Assembly: GCA_965203095.1 (NCBI GenBank)
Contig: OZ241877.1
Span: 896,001-960,000, forward strand
DNA: 64,000 nucleotides
Source of the DNA: Bdellovibrionales bacterium
Lineage (GTDB): Bacteria > Bdellovibrionota > Bdellovibrionia > Bdellovibrionales > UBA1609
Direction of reading: 5' to 3'
Shown here: positions 14,059-27,863 of the stretch, piece by piece
Layout of the letters: the number at the start of each line of letters is the position of its first letter
Numbering within the stretch: position 1 is the first letter of the stretch
Translations under genes and position numbers: made by a program
Notes under the pieces: model-generated
Seen by the model: the letters and a program-made list of their open reading frames with translations, nothing else
What the model was told of the DNA's origin: nothing
The model's database searches: none

Positions 14059-14157
14059 TCAACTCAATTTTGTCAGCGAAATAGCGAACACATACAGGAA
14101 TGACCCCCTACTTTATATTGAATTGACTGGATTAAAAATTCAACCTATATTTTTCTT

Positions 14158-14826
14158 ATGTTTTTATTTAAAAGAAAACCTTCTAAAAAATCTTGGCTTT
14201 TTTTATTAGTAATCCTTTTCTTGATTTTATGTTTCGCCTTGATCTTTAAAATAAAACCTTTTTTAAAATGGCCATCGGCAAAGCTCAACTCCAGCACCCT
14301 TATTAAAACCTCTTCAATTAAAAGCCTTTGTCGGGAGGAAGTTTTTTTAGGCTTTCCCTCTAAAACTGCAAGCTCTTCACAAATAGACAAGCTCACAAAG
14401 CTTATGGATAGCCCTATAGAATGGGTTTTTAAAGATATTCATGAACAGATAGTTGACCTCTACTGTTTCAGGGGGAAAAAGCCTCTTGTAATAAACTTTT
14501 GGGCTACATGGTGCCCTCCCTGTGTGGAGGAGTTGCCCTCTCTTTCTGAATTGGCAAACAGACATTCTGATCAAATTTTTGTTTCAGCCATTAGTGCAGA
14601 GCCTCAACAAAACATTATTCATTTTTTAAAACAGTCTTTTCCTGCCCTCAGCCCTCATCTTAAAATTGCTCAAGTCAGTAAAGAAATTCAATTAGAGCGA
14701 TTTCCGGACGACCAACTTCCTGTCACTTATATTTTTGACAAACAGGGCTTTTTAAAAGCTAAAGAGGTGGGGGCAAGAGATTGGTCGGATAAAGAGCTTG
14801 TCCGGCAACTCCTCCATCTCCCTTAA
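14158..14826 (+). CDS. TlpA/ResA-like thiol-disulfide oxidoreductase
   Basis: N-terminal TM; INFWATWCPPCVEELP; LPVTY cis-Pro motif. Confidence 0.9.
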   Translation: MFLFKRKPSKKSWLFLLVILFLILCFALIFKIKPFLKWPSAKLNSSTLIKTSSIKSLCREEVFLGFPSKTASSSQIDKLTKLMDSPIEWVFKDIHEQIVDLYCFRGKKPLVINFWATWCPPCVEELPSLSELANRHSDQIFVSAISAEPQQNIIHFLKQSFPALSPHLKIAQVSKEIQLERFPDDQLPVTYIFDKQGFLKAKEVGARDWSDKELVRQLLHLP

Positions 14827-14843
14827 ATACCCATGAACCAAGG

Positions 14844-17594
14844 TTATAAGCGGGATATACAGTTTTTGATGATTTTCTCTTGAGTGATTTTATGAGCTTT
14901 TTCCGAACCTTCAGCACTGGCGGCCAGCTCTGGCCTTCCCTCATAATGAATTTCCAAATTTTGGCCTAAGTTTTTTAGCAAACTCTCTAAACGATCTTTT
15001 ATAAAAAACCATGCTCCTCGATTTTGAGGTTCTTCTTGAAGCCAAATAATTTTTGAAAGACAAGGGAATCCGTTTAAAGCCGGATTTAAAGCAGTATCGG
15101 GAAAAGGATAAAGTTGCTCTAAACGAAAAACTACTGCTCTCTTTTTCTTAGAGGAATTTTCTCTTTTAGAAAGTTCCGAATAAAAATCATAATACACCTT
15201 GCCACTACAGAGGACTAAAGTCTCAATATCTCTTGGGTCTTGCCCTTCTTGATCCCAAATCAATTCTTCAAATTTTCCATAAATCAGATCCTCTCGGCTG
15301 GCCATCAGTTCTTCCCTTCTTAAAAGAGATTTTGGAGTCATAATAATTAAAGGCTTTCTCTCTTCAAGAAGGACTTTTTGCCTTCTTAAGGCATGAAATA
15401 AATTGCTCCCTTTTGTGAAATTGCAAAGCCTCATGTTGTTTTGAGCACAAAGCTGTAAAAATCGCTCCATATAAGCACTGGAATGTTCCGGCCCCTGCCC
15501 CTCATAACCATGGGGCAATAGCAAGACAATATCTGTTTTTTTCAACCACTTCATTTCCCCAGAAGAAATAAATTGATCGATTATAATTTGAGCACCATTG
15601 GCAAAATCCCCAAACTGAGCTTCCCAAAGAGTTAAAAAATCAGGGGCTAAACAAGAGTTGCCATACTCAAAAGCCAAAACCGCCATTTCAGATAATGGAG
15701 AGTTATAAAGGCAAAATTCCTGATTGTTGTTTTTAGCTAACTGTTTTAAGGGCGAAAGGGTTTTGCCCGTTTCATAATCGTAATACACTGCATGGCGGTG
15801 GGAAAATGTCCCTCTCTTGGAATCTTGCCCTGTCAAGCGGACGGAAAAGCCCTCTTTTAACAAAGAACCATAAGCCACCAGCTCACATGTTGCCCAATCT
15901 AATTTGTTTTCCGACAAAGCTTGCCTTCTTTTTTGAAGGATTTTTTTAAACTTAGGATTGAGATTTATTCCTTCCGGTTCCATAGAGATAATTTTTAAAA
16001 CTTCTTCCAGTTTTTGTTTTTCAAGAGATGTGCTTTTAAGAGCTTTTTTTGTAATTTTGTCCTCATCCCCCACATAATCTTTTTTTGAAAAAGATCTTTT
16101 AGATTTTCTGAATTGCTTAAGTGCATTCTCCCAATGGCTTTCTGCTTGCTGGATCAAGCTCTCTGCCTTTTCACTGTTTAAAACATTCCCTTTAATGAGA
16201 TCTTCTTTATAATGGATTAAAAGGCTCTGGCATTTTTTGATTTTTTTTGACATTTCCGGTTGAGTAAAAGAAGGCTCATCCCCCTCATTGTGCCCATACT
16301 TCCTATAACCAATCAGATCGATAAAAACATCTGAACCCAACTCTTGACGAAAGCGACAGGCCATGTCCATAGCTTTAAGACATGAGGGCAAATCATCTGC
16401 ATTCACTAAAAGCACCGGTGCTCCAATAGCTTTAGCCATATCTGAGGCAAATAGGCTGGATCGCCCCTCAATGGGATCGGTTGTAAAACCCACTTGGTTA
16501 TTTAAAATAATATGAATAGCCCCACCCACAGTATAGCCCTTGAGTTGAGATAGTTGCAGAGTCTCACTTACAGAACCTTGCCCGCAAAAAGCGGCATCGC
16601 CATGAATGAGAACAGGCAGAACAGATTTTCTTTGTTGCGTGTCTTTATTTTTCCGCTGAAGGGCACGGCTCACCCCACAAACCACTGGGCCAATAGCCTC
16701 TAAATGACTGGGGTTATAAGCCAAATACAAAGAGCAAGGGCCACTTTTAGTCTGCCTTTGAGAGGAAAATCCCACATGGTGTTTTACATCACCAGTCCAA
16801 TCGCCCTCTTTAAAGGTTAATGACTGTTTTCCTCCATCAAATTCTGAAAAAATAGCTTGAGGATTTTGCCCCAAAATATTGACAAGAACATTAATTCGCC
16901 CTCTGTGAGGCATGCCTATTGTTAGATTTTTCATCCCCATACTGGTCCCTTTTTCTAAAAGATAATCCAACATAGGGATTAGGGCGTCTAAACCTTCTAA
17001 AGAGAATCGCTTTTTCCCAAGAAAATAAAAATGAACAAATTGTTCCCAAGTGACAGCTTGGCTCAAGCTTTTAAAAGCTTGGATCTTTTCCTCCTTAGAG
17101 AGAGAAAAATCCTTTTGCTCAAACTCATTAAAAAACCAGTTTCTGACTTGTGGAGGGCAAGCTCCTACTTGAAGAGCTAATGTCCCGCAGTATTTTTCCT
17201 CTAAAAAAAAGAGAACATCTTTTAGAGGTTTTTTTATGCCTAAAAGGCTTTCTGTAATGGCAAAACTTTGGGATAAATCTTTGTCTGTGATTTGAAAATT
17301 CTCCAAAGTGGGAAAGCCTTTGTTAGGGTTATCTCCAAGAGGATCGAGCTGGGCTTTAAGATAGCCATGATCTCTATAATGTTGAAACAACTGAAAAACC
17401 TTTAACTCTTTTTCTAAGGAGGAAAAGCTTTGTTGGCTATCCATACCGGAATGCAAGCCTTGGAAAAACCATCGCCAAGAATCCTCTACCTTTGCCGGAT
17501 CTTGCAGATAGGCTTTATAAAGCTCTTCAGAATAACTTAAGTTGGCTTGGCTTAACTGATCTTCTGCTCTATATTTTGGCATACTTGCACCCAT
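14844..17594 (-). CDS. sucA: 2-oxoglutarate dehydrogenase E1
   Basis: GMPHRGRINVL, NPSHLE, HGDAAF, YGHNEGDEP, WEAQFGDF, LPHGYEGQGPEHSS motifs. Confidence 0.97.
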   Translation of the reverse strand: MGASMPKYRAEDQLSQANLSYSEELYKAYLQDPAKVEDSWRWFFQGLHSGMDSQQSFSSLEKELKVFQLFQHYRDHGYLKAQLDPLGDNPNKGFPTLENFQITDKDLSQSFAITESLLGIKKPLKDVLFFLEEKYCGTLALQVGACPPQVRNWFFNEFEQKDFSLSKEEKIQAFKSLSQAVTWEQFVHFYFLGKKRFSLEGLDALIPMLDYLLEKGTSMGMKNLTIGMPHRGRINVLVNILGQNPQAIFSEFDGGKQSLTFKEGDWTGDVKHHVGFSSQRQTKSGPCSLYLAYNPSHLEAIGPVVCGVSRALQRKNKDTQQRKSVLPVLIHGDAAFCGQGSVSETLQLSQLKGYTVGGAIHIILNNQVGFTTDPIEGRSSLFASDMAKAIGAPVLLVNADDLPSCLKAMDMACRFRQELGSDVFIDLIGYRKYGHNEGDEPSFTQPEMSKKIKKCQSLLIHYKEDLIKGNVLNSEKAESLIQQAESHWENALKQFRKSKRSFSKKDYVGDEDKITKKALKSTSLEKQKLEEVLKIISMEPEGINLNPKFKKILQKRRQALSENKLDWATCELVAYGSLLKEGFSVRLTGQDSKRGTFSHRHAVYYDYETGKTLSPLKQLAKNNNQEFCLYNSPLSEMAVLAFEYGNSCLAPDFLTLWEAQFGDFANGAQIIIDQFISSGEMKWLKKTDIVLLLPHGYEGQGPEHSSAYMERFLQLCAQNNMRLCNFTKGSNLFHALRRQKVLLEERKPLIIMTPKSLLRREELMASREDLIYGKFEELIWDQEGQDPRDIETLVLCSGKVYYDFYSELSKRENSSKKKRAVVFRLEQLYPFPDTALNPALNGFPCLSKIIWLQEEPQNRGAWFFIKDRLESLLKNLGQNLEIHYEGRPELAASAEGSEKAHKITQEKIIKNCISRL

Positions 17595-17781
17595 TCTATT
17601 TTAGAAGTGTTTAGATTCAACAGGAATTTTTTAAAAAAGCCCTTAAAATCCTTTTCTTGAAGAGATTTTTTCCACTTCAAGGGCTGTTTTTCATGATAAA
17701 ATAGTGCTGGAATTATGGGCTGAGGGTAGCCTTTTTGCTGAATGTGCTGTATAAACAAGGCTCTAAAAACCGAACTATCAC

Positions 17782-18549
17782 ATGCTAAACAAGTGGACAC
17801 TTTTTTTTGCTCAAGTTTTTAGCCATGCCGGCTTAGTCTATTTGATTTTTGTCGGGAACTGGCAGGACTGGAGTATTTGCCTGCTGGTTTATTTTTTTAC
17901 AGGCTGTTTGGGCATGACTGTGACTTATCACAGAGGGCTTTCTCATAAAGCTTGGGCTATGCCAAAATTGTTTGAATATGTGGGCACAGTTTGTGCCAGC
18001 ATTGGCCTTACTGGAAGTGCTATATCTTGGGTGGCCATCCATCGAAAACACCATGCCTTTACAGATACAATTAAAGACCCTCATTCCCCTTCTCATAAAG
18101 GTTTTTTCTTTTGCCAATGGCTTTCTATGTTTATCCCTGTAGAGGTGAAATATGTCCCTGATCTTTTAAGGAGACCTTTTTATAAATTTCAACATAAGTT
18201 TTACTTTTTAATTAGCTTTGTTTATGCCGGGGTTCTTTTTTCTATTGATCCTTTTTTGATTGTGTCGGCTTGGCTGGCTCCGGCGACCATCCTTTGGAAT
18301 GCTGGTTCCTTTATCGTCACATTGGCTCACCTTGGAGAAAAATCTCTTGAAACAAAAAGTGGTTTATCTAAAAACAGTCCTCTTTTAGCTCTCTTGGTTT
18401 GGGGGGAGGGTTGGCATAAAAATCACCATTTAAAGCCAGAAAGCCCAAGTTTTGGAAAATATTGGTGGCAATTTGACCTCGGATATTATATAATCCTTTT
18501 GGTCGAGTTTATTGGAGGGATAAAGCCAAGGCTTAAAAAAGCGAGCTAA
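17782..18549 (+). CDS. Membrane fatty-acid desaturase (delta-9-like), copy 1
   Basis: His boxes HRGLSH, HRKHH, GEGWHKNHH; DPHSP motif; hydrophobic segments. Confidence 0.92.
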   Translation: MLNKWTLFFAQVFSHAGLVYLIFVGNWQDWSICLLVYFFTGCLGMTVTYHRGLSHKAWAMPKLFEYVGTVCASIGLTGSAISWVAIHRKHHAFTDTIKDPHSPSHKGFFFCQWLSMFIPVEVKYVPDLLRRPFYKFQHKFYFLISFVYAGVLFSIDPFLIVSAWLAPATILWNAGSFIVTLAHLGEKSLETKSGLSKNSPLLALLVWGEGWHKNHHLKPESPSFGKYWWQFDLGYYIILLVEFIGGIKPRLKKAS

Positions 18550-18663
18550 CCCTTGCTTTTTTGTGCTGGCTTTCTGTCTCGCTTAAAAAAGGCATAAGGA
18601 TCCTTATCCACTTTAAGAGAGTGGTTTTTAAAAAGGAAATGATCATAAATTGGAGTTTAAAAA

Positions 18664-19395
18664 ATGAGTCCAACATTAAAAATCAAGAGGAAAAATCGTC
18701 ATCAGTGCCCTATTTTTGCCAAGCTTAAACTTCAATTTGATATTGGAAAATTAAGAGAAGATCTTAAGTTTTTAAATAAGACAAAAACTTGGGATGGTTT
18801 AAGTAAAGAATATAATGCTCTTTGCGAAACTCATAAAAAACTCCCTCAATATTTCCTAAAAGAAGAGGAAAAGCCTGATGAAAAAGCCGGCTACTCTCAA
18901 TTAGCTGTAAGTGAGTTAGACGAGAGCTTTTGTATTTCGCCCAACAATGAAGAGGAATCCCCTTGGGCCCGGCGAATAGCTAAAAAAAATAAATTGGCGG
19001 ATGAAAGGTTTTACCGCAAGCCTGTTCCAGGGCTACCAAAATATTTCTCTTATGTATTGGATCAATTCCGTCCTTTTTTGCATCGGTCCCGGTTGGCTCG
19101 TTTAAAACCAGGGGGAGAAGTTAAACCCCATATTGATTACGACACCACTTACAGCATCCGTTTACACATCCCTATTGAAAGCAATTCTAAATGTTTTAAT
19201 GGCTGTTTTGTAAAAGGAGAAAACATTGCCCTCAACCTCCCTGCTGATGGGGGCGTTTGGTTTGTCAATCAGGGCCTAAAACACTACGCCCTTAACAATG
19301 GCGAAACCGATCGCATCCACTTAATACTGAGTGTGGATAGCCAAAAATTTATTTCTCCAGAATACTTATCAAAATCTTTGGAGATGAGGTGTTAA
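18664..19395 (+). CDS. Fe(II)/2OG oxygenase, aspartyl/asparaginyl beta-hydroxylase-like
   Basis: RSRLARLKPGGEVKPHID, RLHIPI and H.A.N.G..DRIHL motifs (HxD...H triad plus Arg). Confidence 0.85.
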   Translation: MSPTLKIKRKNRHQCPIFAKLKLQFDIGKLREDLKFLNKTKTWDGLSKEYNALCETHKKLPQYFLKEEEKPDEKAGYSQLAVSELDESFCISPNNEEESPWARRIAKKNKLADERFYRKPVPGLPKYFSYVLDQFRPFLHRSRLARLKPGGEVKPHIDYDTTYSIRLHIPIESNSKCFNGCFVKGENIALNLPADGGVWFVNQGLKHYALNNGETDRIHLILSVDSQKFISPEYLSKSLEMRC

Positions 19396-19401
19396 AAAGT
19401 C

Positions 19402-20265
19402 ATGTGGTTCTTTTTCAAAAAAACAGGGTTCCCATTCCGATGGACTAAAGCGGTTAAAATCCGAATTTTACAGTTGGTTTTTTTTGTTGTCTCTATAATG
19501 GGAATTTTAACTCTCTCTTTCCAATGGACTTTGTTGGGTCTTTTCAGTTATGTTTTTTTGGAAACTGTGGCGGGCAATATAGCTTTACATCGTTATTTTG
19601 CCCATAAAAGTTTTGAAACCTATACTTTTATTGAGCCTATTTTTAGATTCCTTTCTCATTATATTGGTTTGGGATCTGTTGTGAGCTGGGTAGCGACACA
19701 CAGATACCACCATAAACACAGTGACACGGTAAAAGACGCACATAGCCCTCACCATCAAGGCATTTTTAAAATTATATTTGGGCTTTGGAATTTGAATATA
19801 GAAAGAAAAATGATTAGAGACATTCTTCAAGACAAAAAATTACTCAAATGGCATCGTCACTATTTTAAATTTCATATTTTTATTATAGGGCTTTTTATCT
19901 CTATTGATTTTATTTTTAAAAGTCACTTTTTTTACTCTCTTTATGCTTTGCCTAATCTTCTCTGCCTTTTGAGTGGCTATGTTTTGGTAGTTATCACACA
20001 TAGCCACGGCTACCAAACTTATCCCACAGGGGATGAAAGCCGGAACAGCTGGATAGCCAACATTTACACTTTGGGCGAAGGTTGGCACAACAATCACCAT
20101 GCCCAGCCAGACAATTACCAGTCAGGGGAATTGGCCCATGAATGGGATTTGCCGGCTTTACTTATCCGATGGCTTTTTCTTAAAAAGGAGAAAGGCTTTT
20201 TAGCAGACTCCCCCTTGTCAGAGGGAGATGAAAAGTCTGTGATTAACTTAGGAAAAGTTAAATAG
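19402..20265 (+). CDS. Membrane fatty-acid desaturase, copy 2
   Basis: His boxes HRYFAH, HRYHH, GEGWHNNHH. Confidence 0.92.
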   Translation: MWFFFKKTGFPFRWTKAVKIRILQLVFFVVSIMGILTLSFQWTLLGLFSYVFLETVAGNIALHRYFAHKSFETYTFIEPIFRFLSHYIGLGSVVSWVATHRYHHKHSDTVKDAHSPHHQGIFKIIFGLWNLNIERKMIRDILQDKKLLKWHRHYFKFHIFIIGLFISIDFIFKSHFFYSLYALPNLLCLLSGYVLVVITHSHGYQTYPTGDESRNSWIANIYTLGEGWHNNHHAQPDNYQSGELAHEWDLPALLIRWLFLKKEKGFLADSPLSEGDEKSVINLGKVK

Positions 20266-20266
20266 T

Positions 20267-21028
20267 ATGAAAAATATAAACACTTTGCGAGGGCTTTATT
20301 TGATATGTCATATCGCTATTATCCCTGCCATTCTTTTAGGAAGTTTCTCTTGGTGCTTGTGCTCTATCGCGACTTACTTTGTTTTGCAAATTTTAGGCTT
20401 AAGTGTTGGCTTGCATCGGTATTTTGCTCATAAATCCTTCAACACAGGAAAATACCGGGAGTTATTTTTATTATTATTTGCTACAATTACAGCAATGGGT
20501 AGCCCCATAAGTTGGGCCGGCGTGCATCGTTTTCACCATTTACATTCCGATACAGATAAAGACCCTCATTCTCCACACAAAAAAAGCCTTTGGCATATTT
20601 TGTTGGGTTTATACAATAAAAATATTAAAATCCCTCCTTCACTTATAAAAGATCTTTTAAAATCCCCCGCATTGCTTTTTGTGCATAAACATTATTTTAA
20701 AATTTTAGCTGTTTGGGCATTTTGCCTTTTTTTGATTGGTGGTTCCAAAGCTCTTATTTTTATTTTTTGTATTCCCATTGTTTTTATTTACTGGGCCACT
20801 GCTATAGGGCTTATTTTGGTTCACACTCAAGGCTATAGGAATTTTGAGACAATTGATCGATCTGTCAACTCTTGGCTTGTCAGCCTTTACACACTTGGCG
20901 ATGGTTGGCATAATAACCATCATAAATATCCTGATCGCTACAAACATGGTTTAAAATGGTGGGAGCTGGATCTGAGTGCTGTTTTGATCTCTTGGTTTTT
21001 CCAAAAAAAACTGGCCTACACTGCTTAA
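20267..21028 (+). CDS. Membrane fatty-acid desaturase, copy 3
   Basis: His boxes HRYFAH, HRFHH, GDGWHNNHH; DPHSP. Confidence 0.92.
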   Translation: MKNINTLRGLYLICHIAIIPAILLGSFSWCLCSIATYFVLQILGLSVGLHRYFAHKSFNTGKYRELFLLLFATITAMGSPISWAGVHRFHHLHSDTDKDPHSPHKKSLWHILLGLYNKNIKIPPSLIKDLLKSPALLFVHKHYFKILAVWAFCLFLIGGSKALIFIFCIPIVFIYWATAIGLILVHTQGYRNFETIDRSVNSWLVSLYTLGDGWHNNHHKYPDRYKHGLKWWELDLSAVLISWFFQKKLAYTA

Positions 21029-21034
21029 TTTTAT

Positions 21035-21640
21035 ATGAAAAAGCTCTCTTTACAAAAACAATCAGCTGGCCTGAAAATTGCAATTACAGGCCACACTTCC
21101 GGCATAGGGAAAGGGCTATATAACTTTTATATAAAGGATCATCAAGTGATGGGTTTTTCCCGATCTAATGGTTTTGATATTGAAACAAAACAAGATAAGA
21201 TCTTGGAAAAATCAAAAAACTGCGATATTTTTATCAACAATGCTTACAGTGGCTTTGCTCAAACTGACTTGCTTTTTAAATTATGGGATTTTTGGCGAAA
21301 TAAGGAAAAGCTAATAATCAATGTCAATAGTATGATCCGCGATTTGTCTTTCCCCTATATAAAAACCCCGCCTTTTTCTAAATACAAAATTCATAAATTG
21401 GCCCTATATCAAGCTGTGCAAGAGCTACAACAAAGCCCTTCAAAATGTCAAGTCAGCCAAATCACCTTGGGTGTGGTGGATACTTCATTTTTTATACTTA
21501 AATCTGCCCTAAATAAAGACAATAAATTGGTTTCAGAAAAAAAGATGAAAATAAAAGATGTAGTTGAAGTAGTTAATATGATTGTGACCTGTTGGAAAAA
21601 AATCAAAATACATGATATAGTTGTGGGAGAGACTAAATGA
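21035..21640 (+). CDS. Short-chain dehydrogenase/reductase (short atypical SDR)
   Basis: ITGHTSGIG Rossmann motif, INNA, catalytic YxxxK (YKIHK). Confidence 0.85.
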   Translation: MKKLSLQKQSAGLKIAITGHTSGIGKGLYNFYIKDHQVMGFSRSNGFDIETKQDKILEKSKNCDIFINNAYSGFAQTDLLFKLWDFWRNKEKLIINVNSMIRDLSFPYIKTPPFSKYKIHKLALYQAVQELQQSPSKCQVSQITLGVVDTSFFILKSALNKDNKLVSEKKMKIKDVVEVVNMIVTCWKKIKIHDIVVGETK

Positions 21641-22437
21641 AAAACTCTTTACTTTTTTCAGAAACTTATGAAAAACTCTTCAATGAGATTCAAAAAAACA
21701 ACCTTCTACCTATTGGGGAAACAGGAACTCTCCCTATTCATAAAAGCAAAAAAGATGTTGATTATCCTAAAATCATCAAGTTTCAACATGCTTTTTCTCA
21801 TAACAAGCTTTTGGAAGATTTCAATACCACTAAGTCTCTATTAAAAAAATATGGAGAACCTGCTTTTGGAGGCTACAGTTCCTACTTTATCCAAACTCAA
21901 TATTCAGAAGTTTTAAAAATGTTGGGAGAGTTAGGTTTTTCTAAAGACCGTTATGAAGTTTACCAACTGAGCTTGAGTGGCCAGTCTGAACTTTTACCCA
22001 TAGTTGGGGATTACACTCGCGACACTCTCAATAAAATAGGCAGGAATTTTTGGCAATTGTATGTGACGGCAAAACCGGATTGGTCTTTAAAACCTCATAT
22101 TGACCATAAAGATATGAGCAAGTTTGGTTTTAAAGTTTTCCTACCTATCAATGAAGACCGCTATATCGGTTGGATTTGTAAGCACAAAAAAATACAGATA
22201 TATAAACTGTTAAAGGGGATCCCTTATTTTTTAAATGTGACACTGCCTCATTTTGCAGTAAATCCTACTTCAAGCAAGTCTATTGCCTTAAATTTTCATA
22301 TTGCTGAGGACAAAGGCATCCTCAAGGGAGAGGAAATGGAACCGGAAAAAGATATAACTTGGATAGAAAAACAAATTCCATGGATAAAGGAGTTATATGC
22401 TAACTTTGATCAAAATTGTAAGCTCATTTTTAAATAA
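21637..22437 (+). CDS. Second, divergent Fe(II)/2OG (AspH-like) oxygenase
   Basis: LKPHIDH ... F.P ... YFLNVTLPHFAVN; same motif layout as 18664-19395. Confidence 0.65.
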   Translation: MKNSLLFSETYEKLFNEIQKNNLLPIGETGTLPIHKSKKDVDYPKIIKFQHAFSHNKLLEDFNTTKSLLKKYGEPAFGGYSSYFIQTQYSEVLKMLGELGFSKDRYEVYQLSLSGQSELLPIVGDYTRDTLNKIGRNFWQLYVTAKPDWSLKPHIDHKDMSKFGFKVFLPINEDRYIGWICKHKKIQIYKLLKGIPYFLNVTLPHFAVNPTSSKSIALNFHIAEDKGILKGEEMEPEKDITWIEKQIPWIKELYANFDQNCKLIFK

Positions 22438-22882
22438 ATTGAGAGGCTTAGTTTTTAAAAAAATCCCTCTTCGTCAAATTTTGATTTCTGTTATTCTGAT
22501 GGTTTATATTTCTATCTCTCATATTATTTTACCGGCTTTTAACAAGAGCCATTTTTTGTTTTTTTCAGATTGGGTTTTGTTTTCGTTTACACCTTTAGAG
22601 TCCGTTTATGACATTTCTTGGGATGGAGGCAAAAGCTTTCTTTTAAGAGATCATAGGCAAAAAATCCCGTTTTCATTTCAAAATCAAGATTCTTTTAAAG
22701 GAAATAAGTTCATTAACTCTGTATTGTTTAATGATTATAAAACTCTCAAAGAAAAGTTTGTTTTAGATATTAAAACAAAATGCCAGTGTGAAAACCTACA
22801 ATTTTTTAAATTGAAGGGCAGTATAGCCGATCATATCATTTATAAAAAACAGCTTGAAATATACTGGAAAAAAGCACTGTGA
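22397..22882 (+). CDS. Membrane-anchored hypothetical protein (SdpA-like / HTTM partner)
   Basis: One N-terminal TM followed by FFSDWVLFS, similar to the PF..W.MFS motif of HTTM-associated proteins. Confidence 0.5.
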   Translation: MLTLIKIVSSFLNKLRGLVFKKIPLRQILISVILMVYISISHIILPAFNKSHFLFFSDWVLFSFTPLESVYDISWDGGKSFLLRDHRQKIPFSFQNQDSFKGNKFINSVLFNDYKTLKEKFVLDIKTKCQCENLQFFKLKGSIADHIIYKKQLEIYWKKAL

Positions 22883-23712
22883 GCCGGATTTTCTCTCAAA
22901 TTTACTATCTTCTGCTTTTTTGTTCTGGCTATTATTGGGCCTATGTTTGGTTAAATGAGCTTTCCACAGAAGGCATAAAAAAATATCTCTTATTTGCTGG
23001 TTTTTTAAACTATGTTCCCGTCCCGGCCTACCTGTTCCCTTTGTTGGGCTTGCTATTTTTTGTCTTTTGTTTGTTATGTGTTTTATCCCCTGCTGTAAAA
23101 GCTTTTAAACGATTTGAACCTTATTTTAAGATTTTAACTGCGATGCTTTATTGTCTTAATATTTCCATCCTTTTTTCTTATTATGAACATATTATTATAC
23201 ATCATCACTGTTGGATGCTCTCCTGCTGTATTATGTGCTTTCACTGCTCTAATAAAACTTTAAATTCAAAAGCCAATTTATTGGCTTTAAATTTGAATCA
23301 ATCTATTTTGTTAATAAATTATTTCATCTCCAGTTTATGGAGGATTCGCTCTTATACTCATTCGGAATCTTCTTTTTTAGATATAGTGATGGATTATATC
23401 GGGTATGGTTTGGCTGGTGCCAGGGCTGAGCCTTCATTTCTATTGCAAATTTTGTTGGATAAGCCTTATTTTTTGGCCTTTAGTTTTGTATGTGTGACGA
23501 TGTTTCAGCTATCTTGCCTGATTCCTGCTTTTTTAAATTCCCGCCGGTTATTTGTTTTATACGGAGCTTTGCTTATTGGATTTCACTTAGCAACGGGAAT
23601 TACTGTGGGAGTGTATTGGCTTTTTTCCATCCCCTCTATTTTATTTTTTCTTATTGTTGCTGAAACCTTAAAGAAAGAAGAGAGAAAGCTTTTGCTGAGG
23701 CAGAGATCTTAA
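22879..23712 (+). CDS. Polytopic membrane protein, HTTM/SdpB-like
   Basis: About 7 TM segments; HHH, YFISSLWRI (cf. YF.AG..KL) and GFHLATGITVG motifs. Confidence 0.55.
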   Translation: MSRIFSQIYYLLLFCSGYYWAYVWLNELSTEGIKKYLLFAGFLNYVPVPAYLFPLLGLLFFVFCLLCVLSPAVKAFKRFEPYFKILTAMLYCLNISILFSYYEHIIIHHHCWMLSCCIMCFHCSNKTLNSKANLLALNLNQSILLINYFISSLWRIRSYTHSESSFLDIVMDYIGYGLAGARAEPSFLLQILLDKPYFLAFSFVCVTMFQLSCLIPAFLNSRRLFVLYGALLIGFHLATGITVGVYWLFSIPSILFFLIVAETLKKEERKLLLRQRS

Positions 23713-23798
23713 TATACTGATCACAGTTGAAATTTCCGGGCAAAACAAAGAAAACGGGAATCTTCAAATAAAATCCGTATAATTTTGCTTGATAAGTT

Positions 23799-24785
23799 TT
23801 AAGGACGATCAGGAGCAGTTGGAGCCATCGGAGGATTTGCAGGAGGATTTGCGGAAGGAGAAGATTTAAGATTTATTGACTTAGAAATCGTTTTAAATAA
23901 ATTTGTTTTTGAAAACTCCTTATTGTTTTTCATATAATCATAAGCTGTTCCTCCTTCATTATTTTTAACCATGACACTGGCCCCATGATCTAAAAGGAGT
24001 TGAATGACTACGGGATCAATAAACTTGACCCCTGTAAACTCATTAGGGACAGTGGCAGAAAAGATAGGGTTAGACTGAGATTTGCTTTTAAATTCAATAT
24101 CAGCACCTTTAGTTAGCAATAGTTTAATAATTTTAACATCTCTACGGTTGTAAAGAGCCCAATGCAAAGCACTGGCTGAAAAAGTGCTGTCCGGCTCATC
24201 AATATTTTGAATGTATTTTAAAACAGTTTGAACAAACTCATAAGCTTTATCCGTCCTAATTATAGCCCAATGCAGAATTGTGGCTTTAGACTCAGAGCCT
24301 CTTCCTGTTTTTAAAGTAGGATCTGCTCCTGCCTGCATAAGAATATCTATTATTTCAGGATATTGCCCGTCCCGAACAGCCATTACCAGCATGGTCTCAC
24401 TGGTATCTGAGCGGGCGGAATTGATATTCGCAATGCTTTTTAGTTGCTCCTTTAATTGTTCCGGTGTCACTTTATTATGAAATTCTGTGGTGAGATATTC
24501 TGGAATAGCTTTAGGTTCTGGTTTTTGAGTTGAGGCTGGCACAACCTCTTTTACAGCGGGTGAGGTGGGGGGAGCTACTTCTTTTACCCCTTTTACCTCC
24601 GTTAAGGCCGGTGAGCTTGCTGGGGTATCTGAGGAAGGCTCCACTGGCAAAGCGATATTTTGAGAGAGAGCAGGATCTATCTCCCTCACATTCTTTTTGT
24701 CAAACATATATAGGTAATAGCCCGCATAACTCAACCCTATAAGGAGCAATATTAAGATGAAAAGATATTTTATTGTTTTAGCCAT
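23799..24785 (-). CDS. Membrane-anchored ankyrin-repeat protein
   Basis: N-terminal TM, Pro-rich linker, ankyrin units (TILHWAI, ALHWALY...IIKLLLTKGADIE, LLLDHGASV). Confidence 0.88.
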   Translation of the reverse strand: MAKTIKYLFILILLLIGLSYAGYYLYMFDKKNVREIDPALSQNIALPVEPSSDTPASSPALTEVKGVKEVAPPTSPAVKEVVPASTQKPEPKAIPEYLTTEFHNKVTPEQLKEQLKSIANINSARSDTSETMLVMAVRDGQYPEIIDILMQAGADPTLKTGRGSESKATILHWAIIRTDKAYEFVQTVLKYIQNIDEPDSTFSASALHWALYNRRDVKIIKLLLTKGADIEFKSKSQSNPIFSATVPNEFTGVKFIDPVVIQLLLDHGASVMVKNNEGGTAYDYMKNNKEFSKTNLFKTISKSINLKSSPSANPPANPPMAPTAPDRP

Positions 24786-25250
24786 AAAATTTTCCTTAGA
24801 ATAATGAAAGTTTAGACAGCTTAAAATTGGATTTTAGGCTATGTCAAGCTTGTCTATCCTTCCCCTTTCAACAGGTTAAATTTGTTGGTCAAGCTTTCAA
24901 AAGTCCATTTTGTTCTATCATAAAAAATAATTATGGTAAGTATAAATAATAGCGTGTGACAATATCCTCTTCATTGGCTACTCATGATGGATATTCAGCT
25001 CTGACTATTCGCCCTTTGAGGGCTGTTCTTTCTTAATTTTCTTTAAATATCCAAATTTAAATTTTTAAGCTTAAAGCCTTTAAAATAAGCCTTTTGGCTC
25101 AATTTCTGAGTAGTCGGCCCCGCTCAGCTGATCAAACAACCTATAAGCTTTGTAAGCAATTATTCCTAAAAAAGCCCGTTTTTGACAAGCCTTGTCTTGA
25201 CTTGAAACATTTAAAGAGAAAAATAAACTGGCAAGAAAATAAGGTTTTTT

Positions 25251-25568
25251 ATGGCTGATTGGCTAACACTTCAGGAATATTCTAACCAACAAGGGGTGAG
25301 CATCTCCACCCTTCGCCGGAAAATCAAAGGGGGGGAGATAAAATCCCGCATTCAAAACGGTCGCTATCTCCTAAAAGTCCCCTACCCATTAGAGGATTCC
25401 CTCCCTAAAAATGAGCTTAAGGCTTATTATCAAAAGCTTTTATGTCAAAAAGATAAAGAACTAAAAAAACTAAAAGAAGATCGGGAAGACCTTATCCATC
25501 TATTGGATTTTTTAGAAGAGGAAAAAACGGATCTGTTGAATCTTCTAAATAAAGCCCATTGGGATTAA
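25251..25568 (+). CDS. Small helix-turn-helix plus coiled-coil protein
   Basis: WLTLQEYSNQQGVSISTLRRKIK (MerR/excisionase-like HTH) followed by a heptad-rich tail. Confidence 0.7.
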   Translation: MADWLTLQEYSNQQGVSISTLRRKIKGGEIKSRIQNGRYLLKVPYPLEDSLPKNELKAYYQKLLCQKDKELKKLKEDREDLIHLLDFLEEEKTDLLNLLNKAHWD

Positions 25569-25654
25569 AAAGGATGAGGAGTGGCCCACTCCCTTAAAAA
25601 ACAGTTTTATTTTGGCAAAGCCACTTTCTGGTCAATTTAAACAAAGGTTTAAAA

Positions 25655-26515
25655 ATGGATCTCTTAGAAGACCAAGCTAAATTCTGTTATATTCAGCCTA
25701 ATCAGCCCTCTATAAGCATCCCATTTACAAGAAGTCTTTTTGATAAAATCAGCCCCTATCAACATATACAAATCTTGGAAACAAAATTTGCTGGAAAGGC
25801 ACTCATTATTGATAATTATTTAATGTCTTGTGAAAAAGACGAGTTTATTTACAGTGAATTGATAGCTCATACCCCTTTATTTAGCCATCCCCATCCAAAA
25901 TCCGTGCTCATCATTGGCGGAGGCAATGGGGCCACAGCCCGTGAAGTCTTAAAACATGAGAATCTTAATCAATGCATAATGGCTGAGATTGATGAAATGG
26001 TTGTGGAGGCGGCAAAAGAGCATTTAAAATTTTCCTCCATGGCTTTTGATAATCCCAAACTGGATCTTCATATCGCCGATGGGAAGGAATTTATTGCTCA
26101 ATATAACTCTGCTTTTGACATTATCATAGTGGATGATTCGGGAACGGCTGTAAGCTCCTCCCTTGGAACTAAAAGCTTTTATAAAAATGCTTATAGAGCT
26201 TTAAAAGATGATGGCATTATTATATCTAACTGTATGAATTTATTTGAACAGGCAGACAAAGCTAAAATCCTTTTAGAAAAAGTAGCTCAAAGTGGATTTA
26301 AGAAAGCAGGGTTTTATTTTTATCACAATATTTATTTTCCTCCGGGCTTATATTCTTTTCTGTTGGCTTCTAAAGAGCCCCATCCCGTAAAAAACTTTGA
26401 TCCAAAAAGAGTGAGCGGTAAGTCCTTTCGCTATTATAACAGCGATATTCATGTTGCCGGTTTTGCCTGCCCACAATTTATAAAAAATATCCTTGGGGAT
26501 TTATGGACCCTGTAA
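25655..26515 (+). CDS. speE: Spermidine synthase-like protein with divergent active-site motifs
   Basis: SPYQHI, DEFIY.E, VLIIGGGNG, EID, RYYNSDIH...F..P.F motifs. Confidence 0.85.
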   Translation: MDLLEDQAKFCYIQPNQPSISIPFTRSLFDKISPYQHIQILETKFAGKALIIDNYLMSCEKDEFIYSELIAHTPLFSHPHPKSVLIIGGGNGATAREVLKHENLNQCIMAEIDEMVVEAAKEHLKFSSMAFDNPKLDLHIADGKEFIAQYNSAFDIIIVDDSGTAVSSSLGTKSFYKNAYRALKDDGIIISNCMNLFEQADKAKILLEKVAQSGFKKAGFYFYHNIYFPPGLYSFLLASKEPHPVKNFDPKRVSGKSFRYYNSDIHVAGFACPQFIKNILGDLWTL

Positions 26516-26558
26516 AAGATATTCCTTAAAAATTAAAAAATTCAATAAACAGCGAAAA

Positions 26559-27863
26559 TCAAATCACGGGTCTTTTGTCTTCTTCAATAAAGAACTCCAA
26601 CTTTTCAAATTCCTTATTCCAAAAAGTTTTGGCCTTCTTCATGCTTTCTGCCTTAACTGCAAGGTGACCCCTCATAGCACTTAGAAAATCATTTCTTTCT
26701 CTAAAAATAAGGTCTCCCGGCTTTAAGGGAAATTTGGACTCCACCACTGAAGAGGAAAAGGGTTTTTTTTGAGAAAAACTCAATAACCTGCCTTTAGGAA
26801 AAGGCAGTCTTTTAAAAACAACATAATTTTTGGGCTGGTTTCTTTTTTGAATGTCCACTTCCTCCCCTAATAAAGCTCTAACAGCTCTCTCACCATAAGA
26901 GACATCCTCATAACAAATCCTTAAAAAATCAATAGGCAAAGAGTTAAACCGAGGGCTGGCATCTAAAAGATAAAGCTGATTATCTGTAGAGTTCAAAACA
27001 CAGTCAAAAACAAAAGGGCCATAAGGTAAAATGGGATCTTTAACTATTTGTTGGCTTAAACATTGAATTTTATCTAAGACTCCTTTTCCCTCTTCATCAC
27101 AGAAAGGGGCAAAAAACTCGTTTTCACTACGAAAAGGAGGCTTTGCCGGCACCACTTCATAAATCAATGAAAGCTCCATCCCATTTTTTGCTTTAATGCC
27201 TGTCACACAAAAAACAGATCCCGGTATAAATTGCTCCACAAGATATTTTGAGTGGCAGTTATCAAAAAGATAATTGGCATATTCTCCCTTTTTTAGTTCC
27301 ACTCGATCATTGGCATCTGGATTTTCAAAATCGGGTTGAAAGAGCTTACATAACTCTTCTGGCCTTTGGCTTAAAAAAACACCGCAGGAACCACTTCCGC
27401 CATCTGGTTTTGCTATTACAGGAAAATGAGCTATCAAAGAAAGATCCAGATCAGACTGTGTAGATAAAGCTTGAAAAACAGTAGGAGTCTTTATGCCTTT
27501 TAAATTAAAGTGCTTTAAATAACGGCTTTTTCTCATCCAAAATCGAGACAGTTTTTTGTCTAAACCTGGAAATTTCAAACTCTCATTTAAAAAACCTAAG
27601 ACTAAAAAAAGATAACCGTTAATGCCACAAGAAGGGACTATAAAAGATATGTTTTTCTTTTCCTTAATGATTTTTAAACAAGAAGATATATTGCTTTTGA
27701 CATTTATTAAGGCTTTCAGTGGATTTGTGAAATCAGCTGAAGAAGCCAGTTCCCTCTGAGAATAGCGAACAGGGACTGTGTGGGATAAGTAATTTGACTC
27801 TCTCAAAGCTGAATCTATATTCTTATCATTCAGTGAGGATAAGAGGATCAAACAGGATCTCAT
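26559..27863 (-). CDS. ATP-grasp domain ligase (L-amino acid ligase-like)
   Basis: FPVIAKPDGGSGSCGV, YLVEQFIPG and YLLDASPRF motifs. Confidence 0.8.
   Translation of the reverse strand: MRSCLILLSSLNDKNIDSALRESNYLSHTVPVRYSQRELASSADFTNPLKALINVKSNISSCLKIIKEKKNISFIVPSCGINGYLFLVLGFLNESLKFPGLDKKLSRFWMRKSRYLKHFNLKGIKTPTVFQALSTQSDLDLSLIAHFPVIAKPDGGSGSCGVFLSQRPEELCKLFQPDFENPDANDRVELKKGEYANYLFDNCHSKYLVEQFIPGSVFCVTGIKAKNGMELSLIYEVVPAKPPFRSENEFFAPFCDEEGKGVLDKIQCLSQQIVKDPILPYGPFVFDCVLNSTDNQLYLLDASPRFNSLPIDFLRICYEDVSYGERAVRALLGEEVDIQKRNQPKNYVVFKRLPFPKGRLLSFSQKKPFSSSVVESKFPLKPGDLIFRERNDFLSAMRGHLAVKAESMKKAKTFWNKEFEKLEFFIEEDKRPVI

Follow-up and report, generated by a model that had tools for sequence, protein, structure and literature searches.

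Eight genes, designated g1 to g8, occupy positions 17782..23712 on the plus strand of a 64,000-nucleotide stretch of DNA from a Bdellovibrionales bacterium (contig OZ241877.1, positions 896,001 to 960,000), referred to here as the window. They encode three membrane desaturases (g1, g3 and g4), two oxygenases of the AspH type (g2 and g6), a short-chain dehydrogenase/reductase (SDR; g5) and a membrane pair (g7-g8). On sequence comparison, the block is best read as a mosaic accessory island of separately moving modules and not as a fixed pathway. We favor, with about as much confidence as doubt, the explanation that this island is common to Bdellovibrionota and large phages and that its desaturases remodel the acyl chains of scavenged membrane lipids. 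A bolder version, which we find possible but somewhat less than probable, is that the genus has completely lost the synthesis of fatty acids, lipid A and phospholipids and subsists on intact lipids from other cells, and that some members rewrite these in place with a kit exchanged with phages, to which a split GGCX-like enzyme is a cell-specific add-on. If this were true, predator and phage would share one undescribed lipid-remodeling chemistry.

Alignment with the g1 family returned 51 viral loci on contigs of up to 518 kb; many are near-duplicates, and counts over them are not independent (L and G numbers below are our handles for loci and genomes). The viral flanks include terminase, head closure, tail tube, UvsX and single-stranded-DNA-binding genes. 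With window proteins as queries, a g2-type gene was found at most 10 kb from the g1-type gene at 45 of the 51 viral loci and 10 of 14 Bdellovibrionota loci, compared with none of 13 control desaturase loci, and the same linkage sought by family profile was present at 0/66 other desaturase loci. In all six viral loci found with g2 (two of them near-identical) a g1-type gene stands immediately upstream. Relatives of g5 occur at 14/51 viral and 2/14 Bdellovibrionota loci (a profile built from the same viral loci gives 20/51 for the SDR, and we prefer 14/51), and relatives of g6 at 6/51 and 1/14. Other island genes vary and include TauD, PhyH, radical SAM, B12 radical SAM, GNAT-like, methyltransferase, nitroreductase and carbamoyltransferase genes.

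Variability is just as evident among cellular loci. A g1-type gene occurs alone at L039 and in the genus relative G007 (the stand-alone loci listed are L039 and L199), and at L054 an 8.6-kb island precedes the g1-type gene at the same site as in L039. The genus relative G005 carries seven of the eight families at 27-66% identity, spread over separate short contigs and differently ordered; there g7-g8 lies next to sucA in the opposite orientation. No conserved eight-gene operon was seen among the loci examined gene by gene or by profile, which include 17 of 80 metagenome loci. An earlier sequence-only reading of the window had proposed a single dedicated eight-gene pathway. That proposal is not supported: the families do co-occur elsewhere, but no examined locus repeats the set or its order, the g1-type gene can stand alone and g7-g8 travels apart. 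Among 50,697 annotated phage records, three match g1 and two match g2; the SAR11 myophage Mosig matches both (32% identity to g1 and 25.5% to g2), with its island amid tail-fiber genes, between VrlC and the neck genes.

Two further features of these islands were recorded. On one phage-like contig, two tandem desaturases directly follow putative tail-fiber genes, with no oxygenase match (L243:7255-8738). Proteins of 130-170 aa with twin-arginine-like leaders recur in the oxygenase islands of Bdellovibrionota (Table 1); the five scanned have no Pfam match, and none is encoded in the window block.

The three desaturases all pass the PF00487 model in the Pfam scan, keep three His boxes plus the middle His and have transmembrane (TM) helices. 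They are the sole desaturase matches in the 1.8-Mb genome and are 29-40% identical to each other, in agreement with the earlier description of three divergent membrane desaturases with all His boxes. g1 is 66% identical to its counterpart in a genus relative and 55% to a phage gene; its closest matches in named genomes are metagenome-assembled genomes of Oligoflexia, Bdellovibrionales and Pseudobdellovibrionaceae, and it falls in a clade of 26 rows (SH-aLRT 99) in which phage and Bdellovibrionota genes are interleaved. The nearest relative of g3 is phage-borne (52% identity to phage L004 vs 43% for the best cellular match), and its clade has five rows (SH-aLRT 99). g4 belongs to no well-supported clade and matches SCD1 at E 9e-17. 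Trees were built from 131 sequences (FastTree) and 61 rows (IQ-TREE), after de-duplication and with part of the non-Bdellovibrionota matches kept. The sequence-only reading had asked whether the desaturases are recent duplicates, and recent triplication of one desaturase is ruled out by the IQ-TREE analysis, which rejects monophyly of g1, g3 and g4 (p-AU 0.0039).

On these trees, the three desaturases are separate lineages; two are intermingled with phage genes, and no window desaturase groups with the polyyne-type enzymes. The polyyne-type clade consists of desaturases from plasmid clusters with a fatty acyl-AMP ligase (FAAL) and an acyl carrier protein (ACP); its members are polyyne-type by gene content only, and characterized JamB and Cay enzymes are not among them. 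Housekeeping desaturases of Bdellovibrionales (360-420 aa) form another separate clade (support 1.0/100). A DHRxHH motif is present in 13/13 of these housekeeping enzymes and in 0/3 of the window enzymes; likewise, the Asp before the second His box is present in SCD1 and in 13/13 housekeeping enzymes and missing in g1, g3 and g4. At least three desaturases were found at 1/14 Bdellovibrionota loci and 0/51 viral loci.

The second member of the linked core, g2, passes PF05118 and has all of the HxD...H triad and the 2-oxoglutarate (2OG)-binding Arg (H156, D158, H207, R217). It is 46-50% identical to phage genes in six viral loci, and its family is present at E 1e-15 in 21/301 phylum genomes. The nearest solved folds are the nucleoside-antibiotic beta-hydroxylase 7V4F and proline cis-4-hydroxylase (4P7W). 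The earlier assignment of two AspH-like oxygenases is clear for g2 and less so for g6, which keeps HxD...H but has no Pfam match, is linked to the g2 family by a profile match (prob 97.9) and carries Ser where 6/6 aligned relatives carry Arg. Neither protein has a TM segment. Two phage g6-type oxygenases (L160:12951-14168 and L001:9323-10519) have a long N-terminal extension that resembles the GNAT-like island proteins, which suggests, from sequence likeness, coupled acylation and hydroxylation. g5 is a classical SDR by its motifs (TGxxxGxG, NNA and Y117xxxK121, the YxxxK noted before), although it is shorter than usual and its NCBIfam SDR matches are all below cut-off; its family profile matches 154 solved SDR sequences. 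No Pfam model is matched above cut-off by any of g5 to g8.

The membrane pair has a different distribution. The g7 family comprises 103 short stand-alone proteins, is present in 9/301 phylum genomes, has no NCBIfam match and is absent from the viral loci examined. A g8-type gene directly follows the g7-type gene at 7/9 non-self places, and none of seven intact g7-g8 pairs has a desaturase within the 12-20 kb around it. Other HTTM pairs occur in desaturase islands at 5/14 Bdellovibrionota and 0/51 viral loci. A word-indexed search with g8 returned only g8 itself, its family has no match among PDB sequences, and PF05090 matches 0/9 family members at E 0.05. However, hhalign of the g8 family against an HTTM alignment built without g8 gives a prob of 96.3 (control 0.2). 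In both fold searches with the g8 model (pLDDT 78), GGCX came first with modest scores: Z 10.2 with a root-mean-square deviation of 4.5 over 171 aligned residues, which is below the caution level for helical proteins, and, in Foldseek, GGCX in all of the top seven rows at E 0.45-1.2. Relatives carry a family motif YFxxGLWK (Lys in 8/8), whose Lys we presume to be equivalent to the GGCX lysines; in g8 the motif reads YFISSLWR, with Lys replaced by Arg. The predicted g7-g8 complex scores 0.66 (best control 0.00; at least 88% of contacts agree between runs; partner pLDDT at least 79) and passes a mark reached by 116/157 solved pairs and 2/215 mismatched pairs, although this pass may derive from likeness to solved GGCX. 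We read the modeled pair as a split GGCX-like enzyme, so that the membrane pair of the earlier reading is now a two-gene split HTTM (GGCX-like) protein.

The host itself appears unusual in its lipid metabolism. We surveyed ten genomes of the genus (G000-G009, with G000 the window genome) against 15 other relatives. FabF over cut-off was found in 0/10 genus genomes vs 14/15 other relatives, LpxC in 0/10 vs 13/15, and PF01553 acyltransferases in 0/10 vs 14/15; CdsA and CDP-alcohol transferases were found in 0/4 genus genomes vs 1/1 other relative. PlsY is uninformative, being missing from all 25 genomes, including relatives with full lipid synthesis. Lgt is present in 10/10 genus genomes and cytochrome oxidase in 4/4, and one genome of a neighboring genus (G011) shows the same gaps. 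The pattern is consistent over ten assemblies, and by gene content the genus apparently lacks fatty-acid elongation, lipid A synthesis and glycerophospholipid synthesis. Such a genus-wide lack of FabF, LpxC and glycerolipid acyltransferases is surprising in Bdellovibrionota, since B. bacteriovorus is described as synthesizing its lipids de novo in full while also taking up prey lipids (PMC7529429), and one may ask how a Gram-negative cell can construct both of its membranes from stolen lipid.

Among the genes that the window genome retains are one for an ACP, one for a FadD-like ligase and one for a PaaE-like ferredoxin-reductase (C1:1189212-1190276). Its two PF00501 matches both lie away from the block; one is FadD-like, and the other stands beside menaquinone-type genes and is MenE-like by this context. 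The lone ACP, of housekeeping type, lies about 485 kb from the block without fab neighbors (G000:C1:428737-428970) and persists despite the lack of FabF; supply of biotin or lipoate would be a guess at its role. Sphingolipid tailoring was considered and found no support: the one AOS-family enzyme scanned scores 340 bits as BioF vs 208 as SPT, both below cut-off. The literature searched, mostly open-access main texts without supplements, contains no description of this gene set in Bdellovibrionota, nor of a lipid-auxotrophic Bdellovibrionota genus, in line with the earlier statement that the gene combination was not recognizable as a described pathway.

Taken together, these observations suggest the following scheme. 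The modules would be a g1-g2 core of desaturase and AspH-type oxygenase, the further desaturases g3 and g4, the g5-g6 pair of SDR and oxygenase, and the split HTTM protein g7-g8 of Bdellovibrionota type, moving separately among Bdellovibrionota and large aquatic tailed phages. The cell would acquire intact membrane lipids from prey or host. On these lipids g1, g3 and g4, as O2-dependent di-iron enzymes fed by a general ferredoxin-reductase, would add double bonds (or hydroxyls) in place, each at a different position or on a different lipid class. As no acyltransferase was found, desaturated acyl-CoA could not reach the membranes by the usual route, and we infer that intact scavenged lipids are the most plausible substrate. 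g2 and g6 may hydroxylate a head group, an acyl chain or a soluble precursor, and g5 would oxidize or reduce the product. g7-g8 might form a single modifying enzyme that faces the periplasm and possibly uses a quinone, and its substrate may be unrelated. As a result, the envelope would change in its fluidity or in how phage or host recognizes it, and the phage copies are proposed to do the same job in infected cells.

Several observations weigh against lipid remodeling as outlined here. The viral loci are not independent of each other. A lipid-scavenging life does not require the island, since no desaturase was matched in six of the ten genus genomes, and auxotrophy does not explain its origin, since relatives that synthesize lipids in full (G033 and G025) carry similar islands. 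Because the polyyne-type references also lack the Asp before the second His box, its absence does not tell acyl-lipid substrates apart from ACP-bound ones. The Asn four residues before the middle His, which we take to be a metal-water ligand in SCD1, is replaced by Val, Val and Leu in g1, g3 and g4, respectively, whereas 92/128 other sequences have Asn; by this comparison, hydroxylation or reduced activity may be possible for all three enzymes. Small soluble molecules are the substrates of the closest solved relatives of g2, which are hydroxylases, and g2 matches the equivalog of the lipid A hydroxylase LpxO only weakly (15 bits vs a cut-off of 500); with no TM anchors in g2 and no LpxC match in the genome, we rejected LpxO as its identity. 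Without the family Arg in g6 and the family Lys in g8, some parts of the block may be altered or dead. Since the surveyed genomes are 85-94% complete, divergent lipid enzymes could have been missed.

These points bear on four rival explanations. The desaturases could act on lipids while g2, g6 and g5 tailor a small soluble metabolite of amino acid, amine or nucleoside type, the island being a loose kit for a diffusible compound. The top solved matches of g2 (the nucleoside-antibiotic beta-hydroxylase and proline hydroxylases), the lack of TM segments in g2 and g6, and related islands with TauD, radical SAM, GNAT-like, carbamoyltransferase, aminotransferase and ATP-grasp genes all point this way, but the block has no scaffold-building enzyme or exporter, and the tight g1-g2 linkage across phages suggests a common membrane-associated substrate. 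We regard this as unlikely, although for the cyanophage clusters a secondary metabolite is among the readings given by Iyer et al. (PMC7824862). Alternatively, the kit may decorate attachment structures (phage tail fibers, predator adhesins, surface glycans or lipoproteins) and not bulk membrane lipid. The block has no adhesin or Tat-like gene, however, action on proteins is not known for membrane desaturases, and closeness to tail genes may merely reflect a hypervariable region. In our view this makes decoration quite improbable, even though phage islands adjoin tail and head genes, that of Mosig lying within a host-recognition cluster as described (PMC7029224), many cellular islands encode the small proteins with twin-arginine-like leaders, and the predicted fold of g7-g8 is like that of a protein-modifying enzyme.

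Transient or decaying cargo, namely phage-acquired genes that as a unit now have hardly any function or none, would agree with the patchy distribution (21/301 phylum genomes for the g2 family and 9/301 for the g7 family), the substitutions at conserved positions in g6 and g8, and the broken copies in relatives. We consider it very unlikely, as the eight frames are all intact in a reduced genome with host-like codon GC, and the presence of seven of the eight families in G005 at 27-66% identity implies long retention. Very slim prospects also remain for a dedicated alkyne or polyyne pathway that needs no FAAL and draws on the single ACP or FadD in trans. Three desaturases recall the polyyne triad, and the ACP is retained though FabF was not found. 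Polyyne biosynthesis, however, is described as requiring a FAAL, a designated ACP and a thioesterase (PMC9828172, PMC8406139), and the eight genes have no match to a FAAL, a dedicated ACP, a thioesterase or a rubredoxin (the last two searched at the block only); the first two had already been reported missing. The two AMP-binding enzymes of the genome are the FadD-like and MenE-like ones, the window desaturases lie outside the polyyne-type clade, and loci with at least three desaturases are as rare as given above. Alkyne formation is thus an unlikely part of the sequence-only reading, whereas lipid tailoring, the preferred reading, remains the likeliest role for the desaturases. Neither the connection with phages nor the apparent absence of lipid synthesis in the host was noticed in that reading.

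The eight co-directional genes are present as originally called (Table 1). Their tight spacing applies to g2-g8, where gaps of 6, 1 and 6 nt are followed by overlaps of 4, 41 and 4 nt, but not to g1-g2, which are separated by 114 nt with a terminator-like hairpin. Hairpins with a T-run number eight in the scan vs 5.2+/-2.0 in shuffles, so this one is weak by itself, and a promoter scan was at chance level (26 vs 21+/-4). One public contig, which may stem from the source sample, covers 14075-26600 without any difference.

Table 1. Features of the eight-gene block and related small proteins (window positions unless a locus is named)
Feature	Position	Strand	Description
g1	17782-18549	+	255 aa, short Delta9-fold membrane desaturase; PF00487, His boxes; possibly a separate transcription unit
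Hairpin and T-run	18608-18624	+	terminator-like, in the g1-g2 gap; weak
g2	18664-19395	+	soluble AspH-family Fe(II)/2OG oxygenase; PF05118; H156, D158, H207, R217
g3	19402-20265	+	membrane desaturase, second lineage; PF00487
g4	20267-21028	+	membrane desaturase, third lineage; PF00487
g5	21035-21640	+	short SDR oxidoreductase of a phage/Bdellovibrionota family, by motifs
g6	21637-22437	+	divergent AspH-like oxygenase; HxD...H present, family Arg replaced by Ser
g7	22397-22882	+	putative single-TM partner of g8
g8	22879-23712	+	HTTM-family membrane protein, predicted GGCX membrane-domain fold; family Lys replaced by Arg
Small proteins with twin-arginine-like leaders	L027:4958-5347, L028:10846-11250, L029:18197-18640, L033:17232-17669, L037:8190-8696, L054:7054-7554		

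The block is chromosomal and not beside phage tail genes; it is flanked by sucA (14844-17594 on the minus strand, divergent from the block), an ankyrin gene, speE and lon. The earlier claim of an insertion next to sucA is borne out for the neighbor but not shown for the insertion: G+C at third codon positions (GC3) is 0.28-0.38 in the eight genes against a genome 5-95% range of 0.25-0.44, composition gives no evidence of recent transfer, and no empty site can be defined, as the genes upstream of sucA are unrelated in the six other genomes of the genus whose flanks are long enough. Dispersed intergenic repeats touch both ends of the block (17610-17744 and 23710-23785). They belong to a family of about 135 bp (three long and several partial copies, 78-84% alike) and one of about 75 bp (some 30 genome copies), and could help the rearrangements observed around sucA. 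The adjoining gene (23799-24785) encodes an ankyrin-repeat protein with an N-terminal hydrophobic segment, and an ankyrin-like fragment also stands beside a desaturase in G005 (L196). Two kilobases from the block, a spermidine synthase gene lies opposite one for an ATP-grasp protein without a named family (25655-27863). Elsewhere in the genome, three tandem tRNA-Ile(GAT) calls were noted, the third atypical (G000:C1:1739312-1739573).

Known systems resemble the block only in part. The polyyne and alkyne clusters (cay, pgn and jamABC), as described (PMC9828172, PMC8406139), likewise hold three membrane desaturases in one block; the window block differs in having no FAAL, dedicated ACP, thioesterase or rubredoxin, in desaturases that lie outside the clade of polyyne-type references and in a gene set that is not conserved. 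With 7V4F and 4P7W, g2 shares the AspH-type double-stranded beta-helix fold and HxD...H with Arg, but at about 20% identity the substrate is not transferable. As in the vitamin K-dependent gamma-carboxylase GGCX and the HTTM family (PF05090), g8 has the predicted membrane-domain fold, and docking of g7 is predicted to add one more helix and a soluble domain; unlike them, g7-g8 is split in two genes, is 13-15% identical, has no Pfam match, has Lys replaced by Arg and is much shorter than GGCX. Among hosts, Ca. Comchoano is also described as having lost fatty-acid and lipopolysaccharide synthesis, but still has, by the same account, a transporter-acyltransferase fusion and some of the glycerophospholipid pathway (PMC9418006), whereas no PF01553 member was found in the window genus.

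On the viral side, cyanophage desaturases of the same fold are reported to be Delta9 enzymes (PMC5776448). These DesC-like, phage-borne membrane desaturases (vFAD) are likewise proposed to remodel host lipids but are described as single auxiliary genes of cyanophages; the comparison is by description. The cyanophage carbamoyltransferase/2OG-oxygenase clusters (PMC7824862) are similarly variable sets of oxygenases and transferases, which are interpreted as serving surface decoration or metabolite synthesis, but the word "desaturase" occurs nowhere in the main text of that paper, which presents no cellular predator counterpart there. The closest likeness is to the host-recognition cluster of pelagimyophages (PMC7029224) and to Pelagibacter phage Mosig EXVC030M (MT647606), a variable island with a desaturase beside AspH oxygenases, together with GNAT, TauD, radical SAM, nitroreductase and methylase genes. 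The text of the pelagimyophage paper treats glycosyltransferases and gives these enzymes no function (PMC7029224), and the Mosig announcement does not mention a desaturase (PMC7892664). The window block shares with myophage islands the combination of shared families and variable content, yet it lies on a cellular chromosome and combines three desaturases with an SDR and an HTTM pair, the last being found in none of the viral loci examined. Thus, this type of island has already been noted in passing in myophages, as far as those texts go (PMC7029224, PMC7824862); the window block adds a compact copy carried by a cell that apparently makes no lipids. Without scaffold synthesis, and in a host seemingly lacking its own lipid synthesis, the modified substrate must be imported or generic. 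Desaturase/oxygenase islands are common in large aquatic phages; the window copy, with six enzymes and no scaffold synthesis, offers a small expressible test case, and phage Mosig a cultured system for the viral side.

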